Part shown: one piece after another, positions 17,578 through 30,991 of the stretch
Numbering within the stretch: the first letter of the stretch is position 1
How the letters are laid out: the number at the start of each line of letters is the position of its first letter
NCBI GenBank assembly: GCA_043228905.1
Contig: JBHGNT010000014.1
Coordinates: 18,352,001-18,416,000 of the forward strand
DNA length: 64,000 bases
Reading direction: 5' to 3'
Source: Azolla caroliniana
Taxonomy: Eukaryota; Plantae; Polypodiophyta
Position numbers and translations under genes: made by a program
Notes under the pieces: generated by a model
Told to the model about the DNA's origin: nothing
Databases searched by the model: none
What the model saw: the letters and a program-made list of their open reading frames with translations, nothing else

Positions 17578-17626
<49 letters not shown>

Positions 17627-17629
<3 letters not shown>

Positions 17630-17787
17630 AATTGGCTTACCCTAGTGGTAAGTTGTTAACACTACAAGCACTACTCTGTCTTGGGTTCGAAACCCAATTT
17701 TCTCACCTCTCTATTATATACTTCATATATATCTTTTCTTTCACTAGATGCCATTGTGGAATGTAGGGGTTGAACCCATGACCACCT

Positions 17788-17788
<1 letters not shown>
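17627..17788. mobile_element. tRNA-derived (SINE-like) insert between two (CT)n tracts
   Basis: On + there is an A-box TACCCTAGTGG (17638-17648) and a perfect T-arm TTGGG-TTCGAAA-CCCAA (17681-17697). On - there is a second T-loop-like GGTCATGGGTTCAACCCC at the right end. No intact cloverleaf is visible. Confidence 0.6.
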
Positions 17789-17821
<33 letters not shown>

Positions 17822-17824
<3 letters not shown>

Positions 17825-17904
17825 TTGTGCGTGTCATCCTTGCGCAGGGGCATGCTAATCTTCTATGTATCGTTCCAATTTTTATCAGATGTCCCCGAAG
17901 GGAC
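17822..17904 (-). pseudogene. U6: U6 snRNA retrocopy, 3'-truncated (~nt 1-84)
   Basis: The reverse complement reads GTCCCTTCGGGGACATCTGATAAAAATTGGAACGATACATAGAAGATTAGCATGCCCCTGCGCAAGGATGACACGCACAAAT, which matches plant U6. The ACAGAGA box is mutated to ACATAGA, there is no upstream USE/TATA and no oligo-T terminator, and (GA)n lies on both sides. Confidence 0.95.
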
Positions 17905-29500: not shown

Positions 29501-30138
29501 TCCTTGAAACCCCAGAAGTGTCCACAAATCCTTGCGCGGAGGATCGTTTGGAGCGGTTACGCAAGATACAAGCGGATTTATCTACTCAACTCCAGCAAGC
29601 TCAACAATCACACAAGGACTACGCAGATCGTCATCGACTTCCATCCAGTTTTAACATTGGAGATCGGGTGTGGCTGCTACGACGACACATCAAGACTACT
29701 CGCCCATGTGAGAAGTTGGATTATCGACGATTAGGTCCTTTCCGTATTATCGGGAAGATTAATGATGTCGCTTTTCGTCTCGAGCTACCTCCGCAACTTC
29801 GGATACACCCGGTGTTTCATAGTTCTCTCCTCGAACCCTATCACGAGAGCACTATCCCAGGACGTACTATACAACCTCCACCTCCTATCGAGCTCGAAGA
29901 TGGACCTGAGTATGAGGTCGTTGCCATCCTCGATTCCAAGATTATTCGCAACAAGCTCTACTATCTAGTCGATTGGCTAGGATATAGTCCCAGCGAGCGT
30001 ACTTGGGAACCGATCGAGAATGTGACCAATGCTCGTGCTCTTCTAGAAGACTTCCATCGACGATATCCCGAGAAACCGGGTCCTCAATCCAAAACGACTC
30101 GTGAAACTCGTCGTTTTAAAGGGGGGATAGTGTCATAA
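26548..30138 (+). CDS. pol: Pol polyprotein: protease-RT-RNase H-integrase-chromodomain (-1 frame relative to gag)
   Basis: LLDSGA (PR), YLDD (RT), DASDF/NYEIHDKELLA (RH), H..H..C..C zinc finger plus DFITDLP/SDRGPQF/DGQAERTN (IN), GPF motif, and YEVVAILDSK..YYLVDWLGY..TWEP (chromodomain). The stop codon lies inside the 3' LTR. Confidence 0.96.
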   Translation, partial: RLSPAKIGAVWLDSPRSVQPISGSIPSKQVSDVFVVQVAVSTKSTPPVHTLALLDSGANSCFMDRNFARAHQISLRKLPCPASVVVIDGRPIASGNIIEESEPVNIVLDNLTCVVSFNIISIPEHPIVLGLPWFELHDPDIDWRTREIRLRQTQGSTQKVATISLRQLREEGRKEEMFLFAISVQPSSTTKEESTVQLPEKYRQYADVFDKVQANTLPHHRPYDCAIDLQPGKEPPWGPIYNLSPTELEVLRAYIEENLENGFIRHSKSPAGAPIFFVKKKDGSLRLVVDYRGLNKVTVRNRYALPLISSLLERINGARFFTKIDLRGAYNLVRIRPGDEWKTAFRTRYGHFEYTVMPFGLTNAPAVFQHMANDIFRDLLDDFLIIYLDDLLVYSKTQEEHDSHVLLVLKRLREHGLYAKLEKCSFGCNQVEFLGYVISSEGISMDPAKVKTVIEWHTPRSVRDVQCFLGFANFYRKFIQNYSKIVLPLTQLTRKGQSFIWSKETDMAFESLKKAFTSAPILGHVDPEKPFIIEADASDFALGSILSQQGNDEKLHPVAFHSRKFDAAEINYEIHDKELLAIVDSFMQWRHFLEGSPHQVTVFSDHKNLAYFQDARVLNRRQARWAHFLTRFDFKITYRPGKHQGKADALSRRSYLTPRPGEPAFDNQKQVILGPARLQAAQIFDMPVDSDITNTIREDLKTDAFAQAILAQIDPSRASCSQSQSPGTDYRQFKYCDGLLFFKELLYVPNGSCRLRVVQNCHDTYTAGHFGSTKTLDLVQRSFWWPRMRQFVEDFVRTCDTCCRAKMPRHHPYGLLEPLPIPSKPWQSIALDFITDLPVSKGFSAILTVVDRYTKMAHFLPCTKEISSEDTAEIVMREVCRHHGLPDNIISDRGPQFVSKFWKHLFKMLKVTCNLSSGYHPQTDGQAERTNQTLEQYLRCFLNYHQNDWADILPFTEFAYNNAIHASTKVTPFYAYTGYHPRWCVLETPEVSTNPCAEDRLERLRKIQADLSTQLQQAQQSHKDYADRHRLPSSFNIGDRVWLLRRHIKTTRPCEKLDYRRLGPFRIIGKINDVAFRLELPPQLRIHPVFHSSLLEPYHESTIPGRTIQPPPPIELEDGPEYEVVAILDSKIIRNKLYYLVDWLGYSPSERTWEPIENVTNARALLEDFHRRYPEKPGPQSKTTRETRRFKGGIVS

Positions 30139-30420
30139 CTAGACTCGAACCCATAACCTTTTGTTACACGGGTCGAGACTTTACCATTAGGTTATGAGTT
30201 GTAATTTGAAGGATATTATTTTCATTTAGGTTTTATTAGGAAATTGATGTATATTCCAGATTTCTCTGGAACATTCTAGAAACTTCAGGAGTATTCCTGA
30301 AGACACTATAAAAGGAGGCGCAAGGCATTAGTTCGAACCAAATCGGTTCAACGCCAGTCTTAAGCCTTCTAACTACTGTTGTATATCTTCCGTCATATAA
30401 TACATATATCTTTCGCATCA

Positions 30421-30458
<38 letters not shown>

Positions 30459-30591
30459 ACTCATTCCTTCTCTCAAAGTTCGACACCTCTCATAGTACTA
30501 ATCCTTCTCTGTCTTAGTACTATTCCCCAACAATAGTACTAATCCTTCTTTTAGTACTAATTCCTTCTCTACCTTAATAGAGTTCCTGACA
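30131..30591 (+). repeat. 3' LTR
   Basis: Direct repeat of 24837-25297, preceded by the PPT. Confidence 0.97.
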
Positions 30592-30920
30592 GTATGCATC
30601 CTTTGCAGAATTTGGAGACTCGTCCATATTCATGAAAACACTATCATCCATATGACAAGAATTAAGAAAGAGCTCACTTACAAGTAATTGTGTTGGAGAA
30701 GGAGTCAAAGCAAGCGATCATGAGATGCATGCAACCGAATTGAATTTTTACTCGTAGCGTTCTACCAAGACCCCCAAATGATACGTGCAGATACTCTTTA
30801 GAAAGCTCTCCGTGCAAGCTTCGAAATGAGCCAAAGAACAAAGGAAACGGACACAGTAGCAAGAAGATACATCAAAAATAGTGTTTTTCCTTCTCCAACA
30901 TCTCCCAACTTTGCGTTTTC

Positions 30921-30991
<71 letters not shown>

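Follow-up and report, generated by a model that had tools for sequence, protein, structure and literature searches.

A chain of four inserts, bordered and separated by (CT)n tracts, occupies positions 17582–30987 of the 64,000-nucleotide stretch of Azolla caroliniana DNA analyzed here (hereafter, the window). We consider it probable that a single (GA)n/(TC)n tract received successive target-primed insertions, and that these were made by a LINE lineage of the plant L1 clade whose preference for such tracts is strong, though leaky. The evidence consists of the anatomy of the chain, the shared orientation of its members, the L1-type proteins of the LINEs, the sense-strand (GA)n that borders elements across the family and the recurrence of chains at other loci, and from these we infer the individual steps of insertion.

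Anatomy of the chain

Using Tandem Repeats Finder, we located five perfect (CT)n tracts in the cluster, at exactly the coordinates given in the original prediction and alternating with four inserts as it had described. Read along the minus strand, which is the sense strand, the order is (GA)31, LINE-A, (GA)24, LINE-B, (GA)8, U6, (GA)17, SINE and (GA)22. On the forward strand, the upstream end of the chain is (CT)31.5 (30925–30987), followed by (CT)24 between the LINE-A 3' end and the LINE-B truncation point (19527–19574), (CT)8.5 (17905–17921) and (CT)17 (17789–17822) on the two sides of U6, and (CT)22.5 (17582–17626) at the downstream end. All inserts adjoin (GA)n on their own sense strand, at both ends as had been claimed, and the co-orientation noted earlier for U6 and both LINEs extends to the SINE. 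The three internal junctions consist of (GA)n alone, with no other DNA, as 17–48 nt of pure repeat; three such junctions would not be expected from random insertion. Nine (CT)n runs of at least eight units are present in the window, and the cluster holds seven of them, including two in nested LTRs (see below).

LINE-A had been described as a single full-length element, a description that did not hold. The element is approximately 5.6 kb long, and not 11 kb, carries stops and frameshifts, and is split by a 5.75-kb Ty3/gypsy element (24837–30591, plus strand). According to domain matches and translation, its main part (19575–24836, minus strand) contains an ORF1 remnant with a CCHC knuckle, a broken ORF2 (approximately 23529–19686) that matches APE endonuclease, RT and zf-RVT in pieces, and the 3' UTR; its 5' end, a 5' UTR (30592–30924, minus strand), was recognized from read contigs that run from 24832 into this sequence. 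Within its first 1013 codons, ORF2 is interrupted by three in-frame stops; with frameshifts and two changed catalytic endonuclease motifs in addition, LINE-A is, judging from its sequence, a dead element. LINE-B (17922–19526, minus strand) is degenerate, matches L023 and L031 at 91–93%, and is 5'-truncated as predicted, starting near residue 759 of the ORF2 of its subfamily. The ORF2 identity between the LINE-A and LINE-B subfamilies is 46–47%, in agreement with the clear divergence asserted earlier, and the private divergence of the two copies (2.7% for LINE-A and 2.8–6.5% for LINE-B) does not separate their ages.

The nested element is of the chromovirus type and has two open frames; its matches are to gag, protease, RT, RNase H, integrase and chromodomain. 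Its 461-bp LTRs are identical except for one base, and its target site duplication (TSD) is GTATG; the element is young and has no part in the chain mechanism. Each of its LTRs contains a (TC)15 of its own, so that this element spreads potential LINE targets, and the LINE at locus L010 appears to have used one. Over 192 nt, the 3' flank of L010 matches at 82% the LTR (TC)n tract, which has no insert in the window; this is suggestive of insertion into a pre-existing LTR tract, in a join that crosses 44 nt of repeat.

The predicted U6 retrocopy (non-repeat part, 17823–17904) was found on the minus strand by Rfam (RF00026, 74.7 bits) and alignment, but it is incomplete. It begins at 17904, which corresponds to position 1 of the Rfam model, and the match ends where the consensus reads cgaGAaa, so that the copy lacks its 3' part and stops at an internal GAGA. 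Such a stop fits priming by a (TC)n strand that had been nicked. Because the 5' end of U6 RNA is its own +1, the upstream (GA)8 is not derivable from the RNA. Since U6 RNA offers no source of (GA)n on either side, at least one event in this chain would have used a pre-existing tract. The evidence from U6 is a single copy; the combination of U6 and (GA)n had no match in the viral contig collection, and no U6 was found in 118 LINE loci.

The remaining insert (17627–17788) had been called a tRNA-like piece. Neither ARAGORN nor Rfam returned a match for it. The insert matches L029 (E 6e-23) and L018 (E 1e-7) and is, by these matches, a member of a tRNA-head SINE family, of which three further copies were found in two of the 63 loci sampled. 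When inspected by eye, the L029 copies have a full box A/box B head (Rfam again without a tRNA match), and the window copy retains a box B-like motif with box A gone. Because it matches the L029 and L018 copies and the L029 heads are complete, the window copy was assigned as 5'-truncated on the minus strand. In the window and at L029, the 3' half of the SINE can also be read by eye, in the opposite direction, as another tRNA-like unit with box A and box B; the SINE may thus have Pol III promoters that face inward.

We considered whether one reverse-transcription event could have jumped between SINE, U6, LINE-B and LINE-A templates, as in U6/L1 or tripartite chimeras. In its favor, all pieces are co-oriented and the ages of the two LINEs are not separated by their divergence. 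However, the pure (GA)n at every internal junction and the differently composed two-member chains at other loci (see below) argue against it, and mammalian U6/L1 chimeras were not seen starting internally on U6 in the available text of PMC4476161; we regard this explanation as highly improbable. The template-switch chimera in the narrower sense, a complete U6 fused directly to a truncated LINE, was rejected because the U6 copy is 3'-truncated and followed by (GA)17 and then by the SINE. That the pieces came together by chance, or that microsatellites caused the window to be mis-assembled, is scarcely credible: although no listed read contig spans even LINE-A, the tract lengths and junctions all differ and coincide with element boundaries, the background frequency of (GA)n is below 1%, and a short-tract chain is present in the low-coverage contig L029.

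Several other features were observed in the window. A short, MITE-like inverted-repeat element (17426–17569) lies 12 bp from the chain end. The cluster is flanked by inverted repeats (16895–17059 and 32753–32952, 76%), which we weighed as possible transposon ends but did not retain, because a related stretch occurs at 35221–35280. On the minus strand at 42388–63999, one frame runs for at least 7,203 codons without a stop and is open at the window end. It comprises a 1,467-bp (489 aa) unit repeated approximately 10 times, with 0–1 differences between compared neighbours, and older 417-bp repeats. Its product would be acidic and rich in E, Q and D, with no Pfam match in the two pieces tested, and it represents either the exon of a giant repeat protein or an assembly expansion.

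(GA)n at the ends of family elements

We sampled the LINE family in 63 public metagenome contigs and scored a junction as positive when at least four GA units were present within 25 nt on the sense strand. By this measure, 0.7–0.8% of 15,435 flank positions were positive. At 3' ends, (GA)n was detected in 20 of 32 rows (16 of 28 distinct ends, P = 1e-27) and (TC)n, that is, the opposite strand, in 0/32. The 3' ends of L011, L014 and L021, where the contig ends in the run, and of L048, whose flank is shared with L037, were left out; the badly registered 3' ends of L040 and L041 were retained as misses. Full-length 5' ends were preceded by (GA)n in 9 of 11 cases (P = 5e-18), once L006, which shares its flank with L005, and a repeated row for L022 had been removed from the 13 rows; several of the reference 5' starts were placed beside a GA run, and the start was confirmed for three subfamilies by differently flanked copies. 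At 5'-truncation junctions, (GA)n was present in 3 of 25 (P = 9e-4, approximately 15-fold enriched) and (TC)n in 1 of 25; 30 rows were reduced to these 25 by removing L052 (identical to L043), L012, which is no truncation, L040, whose break is internal, and all but one of the three L050 rows. The loci are partly non-independent, high-coverage contigs are collapsed repeats whose two ends possibly stem from different copies, contig joins over long GA runs may be assembly choices, and some truncation junctions may represent later deletions or insertions.

These results bear out, in independent contigs and several diverged subfamilies, the strand-specific association with (GA)n that had been proposed to hold across subfamilies, with exceptions such as the subfamily loci L008 and L009, whose 3' ends showed no (GA)n. 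The predicted tandem trains were also recovered as GA-linked chains elsewhere: a LINE 3' end, (GA)23 and a full LINE at L031; a LINE, (GA)5 and a SINE at L018; a SINE head, (GA)8, 10 nt and a SINE at L029; a LINE, GA and a tiny LINE 3' end at L016; and, in run X1, a LINE-A tandem joint with CT-rich letters at the joint. The sole opposite-strand repeat junction was found at L016 (positions 1–40), where a 5'-truncated LINE follows (TC)17; this may reflect an inverted neighbour or twin priming.

The stronger claim of strict targeting was not sustained. The truncation junctions lacked (GA)n in 22 of 25 cases, and the difference from 3' ends was significant (3/25 versus 16/28, Fisher's exact test, P = 0.001); among copies of at least 85% identity, one of 11 truncation junctions had (GA)n. 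Pure insertion within tracts would give equal (GA)n rates at truncations and 3' ends, and the unequal rates observed count against it. The absence of poly(A) held for the window copies, LINE-A ending in just three A, but in the family a run of 0–10 A precedes the flank (25 ends), and a short A-run is present at the majority of 3' ends. L044 has an intact 13-bp A-rich TSD without a microsatellite, the sole clear non-GA TSD in 19 two-ended copies, where TSDs within (GA)n are unreadable; for the plant L1 clade, an A-rich tail and a TSD of 7–20 bp would be expected. The original prediction had named random 5' flanks, A tails and non-microsatellite TSDs as features that would speak against it, and these are in part present, in the truncations, the A tails and L044, respectively. 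Three observations indicate that the preference is leaky: (GA)n is scarce where elements are truncated, A-runs are present, and L044 has an ordinary TSD. They also suggest that some of the (GA)n is transcript-borne.

Read contigs gave a similar picture. In all four runs, within a selected subset of contigs, the loose 3' letters on the plus strand begin with a T-run and continue as mixed CT-rich sequence. The loose ends inspected (24 of 1,937 and 24 of 393) are too few and too selected for counting truncations; three truncation-like rows were among them, one of which started with (CT)5 where LINE-A has a CT run of its own. In a small and post hoc comparison, the element sequence before the truncation point was a run of five purines in four of five GA-flanked cases, two of them from the window, compared with 5–10% of positions.

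Two further explanations can be weighed against these data. Under strict Kibi-like specificity, the endonuclease would cut (TC)n near-exclusively, and non-GA junctions would be later rearrangements or assembly chimeras. All window junctions are (GA)n and many contigs are collapsed or old, as this explanation would have it; nevertheless, the intact TSD of L044, the 12 of 32 3' ends without (GA)n, and the T-runs and mixed CT-rich letters in the read contigs of four runs render it very unlikely. Alternatively, (GA)n might be borne by the element itself, as a promoter-side tract at the 5' end and an RNA-copied tail at the 3' end, with insertion into generic purine-rich sites and with earlier tails serving as sites and producing chains. 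The high rates at full-length 5' and 3' ends, combined with the low rate at truncations, are what this explanation predicts, and it agrees with L048, where GA marks the 3' end but not the 5' junction, and with a homolog of the L012 flank in L018 that lacks the (GA)n run. There is also a precedent for such tails in plant RTE LINEs, which end in (GTT)n (PMC6007223, available text). However, U6 has no GA tail and is flanked by (GA)n on both sides, the 3' ends without (GA)n show that a tail is not obligate, truncation junctions are still enriched approximately 15-fold, and L010 appears to lie in a pre-existing LTR tract. We therefore judge a purely element-borne origin to be unlikely, and favor repeated insertion into a (GA)n/(TC)n tract with a leaky preference, under which the (GA)n at full-length 5' and 3' ends is probably in part carried by the transcript.

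Lineage of the LINE family

Unnamed database relatives of the LINE ORF2 were 48–92% identical to it, and the close named ones were solely from Adiantum nelumboides (40–52%); the next named matches were angiosperm L1 elements at 21–29% and one fish TX1. More distant relatives from viral and genome contig collections (22–35% identity) were used only as tree rows, a profile search across all proteins gave unnamed fragments, and the ESM Atlas returned generic LINE clusters without useful taxa. In the intact relatives P0025 and P0092, Pfam APE endonuclease, RT and zf-RVT domains were identified in ORF2, and the best PDB match of ORF2 was human L1 ORF2p (E 2e-85). The intact subfamily proteins that were checked retain their catalytic endonuclease motifs. 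In ORF1, DUF4283, the main ORF1 marker of plant L1 according to the available text of PMC5203782, was matched above the cut-off in L020 and below it in L023, and was not found in L004, and zf-CCHC was matched in all three of these intact copies, above the cut-off in two. In each of the three, the ORF1 stop lies within a four-base overlap with the ORF2 start, which suggests that the two frames may be translated in a coupled manner.

We compared RT sequences in a tree of 29 of 69 rows, in which one named element represents Tx1. The family and Adiantum formed one clade (100/100), sister to seven angiosperm L1 elements with a support of 94/90, just under the star threshold and with long branches. 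In both this tree and a quick tree, the family was separate from this sole named Tx1 (Takifugu, P0286). The earlier description of an L1/Tx1-like family is accordingly retained for its L1 part, through the grouping with plant L1, and not for Tx1, and the sequence comparisons indicate that these LINEs probably belong to the plant L1 lineage, in a lineage probably of ferns. The fern assignment comes from the LINE relatives; a PPR protein encoded nearby had its best named matches in a lycophyte, a gymnosperm and a fern, at approximately 28–49%, and did not decide the matter.

Between 20 and 38% of LINE-A words were present in the sequencing runs of five coded organisms. The summed contig depth along LINE-A dropped 7- to 22-fold from the 3' bin to the 5' bin in four of four runs, which is the pattern of 5' truncation and does not represent a copy number. 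Contigs filed as bacterial MAGs (L069 and L075–L111) also contain eukaryotic LINEs, one of them among U1/U2/5S genes and many in tandem approximately 6.5 kb apart; these are likely host contamination.

Proposed mechanism and comparison with known systems

The steps of insertion might be as follows. The predicted APE endonuclease would nick the pyrimidine-rich strand, mostly at (TC)n and otherwise in T/C-rich DNA. The freed 3'-OH end could pair with the short A-run of the RNA, with read-through (GA)n or, for U6, with the internal GAGA, and would thereby prime reverse transcription. The end of the cDNA would be joined to the upstream (GA)n strand through a few purine-rich bases of homology, and each insertion would leave (GA)n on one or both sides as the next target. 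U6 and the SINE would be copied in trans by the same machinery. A more far-reaching version is possible, although we consider it doubtful: transcripts would carry (GA)n at both ends and pair with (TC)n nicks, off-target copies would seed new tracts, and a fern-wide L1 lineage, having acquired (TC)n targeting independently of Tx1, would have tracts that collect LINE, SINE and snRNA trains and would be a main source of the GA microsatellites of the genome. If targeting is true, it bears on the origin of GA microsatellites in these genomes, and (CT)n markers in them should be used with caution, as they may fall in repeat junctions. Whether the endonuclease or RNA–DNA pairing sets the target site is described as "not well understood" in the available text of PMC3812793, and the intact ORF2 copies in public contigs make this question directly addressable.

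In the literature searched, as far as its text was available, microsatellite-targeting LINEs were described in animals only. No precedent for a microsatellite-targeting plant L1 was found, and none is described in the available text of PMC3472496, PMC4640811, PMC3747384 or PMC6007223; a prior description is possible in Repbase, supplements or subscription journals. The terms "microsatellite", "non-LTR" and "SINE" are unused in the available main text of the fern genome papers PMC6786969, PMC12400808 and PMC9477723.

The present lineage resembles plant L1 in its ORF1 with DUF4283 and zf-CCHC, its ORF2 with APE, RT and zf-RVT (PMC5203782, available text) and its short A tail, and the available text of PMC3472496 reports relaxed trans-mobilization for plant L1. 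It differs in that its identity to angiosperm L1 ORF2 is 22–29% and in that no microsatellite preference was found for plant L1 in the text available. For mammalian L1, tailless retropseudogenes and 3'-truncated snRNA copies are described as primed by pairing with the target (PMC5322556 and PMC4476161, available text). The 3'-truncated U6 copy is similar in that its end would pair with the target, but GAGA would pair with (TC)n here, whereas A-rich RNA pairs with T-rich DNA in mammals; in maize, only eight U2 cases were found (PMC5322556, available text). Plant RTE LINEs and Au SINEs with (GTT)n ends share microsatellite-like 3' ends and a choice of target by pairing (PMC6007223, available text), although they belong to the RTE clade, the repeat is the tail of the element and the target is no microsatellite tract. 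Crocodilian Tx1-Mar LINEs and SINEU share a common target for a LINE and its passenger RNAs, which end up adjacent (PMC4494074, available text), but these are animal Tx1 elements and their target is a Mariner transposon.

The closest likeness in behavior is to Kibi and Koshi, APE-type LINEs of the Tx1 clade in teleost fish, which insert into (TC)n and (TTC)n microsatellites (PMC4494074 and PMC3812793, available text). Against the 20% flank criterion for target specificity given in the available text of PMC4494074, the present lineage exceeds this value at 3' ends (16/28) and remains below it at truncation junctions (3/25). It behaves as a relaxed Kibi, an APE-type LINE at (TC)n tracts, but differs in three respects from these animal Tx1 elements, which are described as specific: its ORF1 is of the plant DUF4283 type, its A tails are short, and its copies are frequently off target. 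The best reading is that the (TC)n preference of these LINEs is probably convergent with that of fish Kibi. A leaky (TC)n preference common to subfamilies that are 46–66% identical would represent an intermediate between randomly inserting L1 and strictly targeted Tx1.
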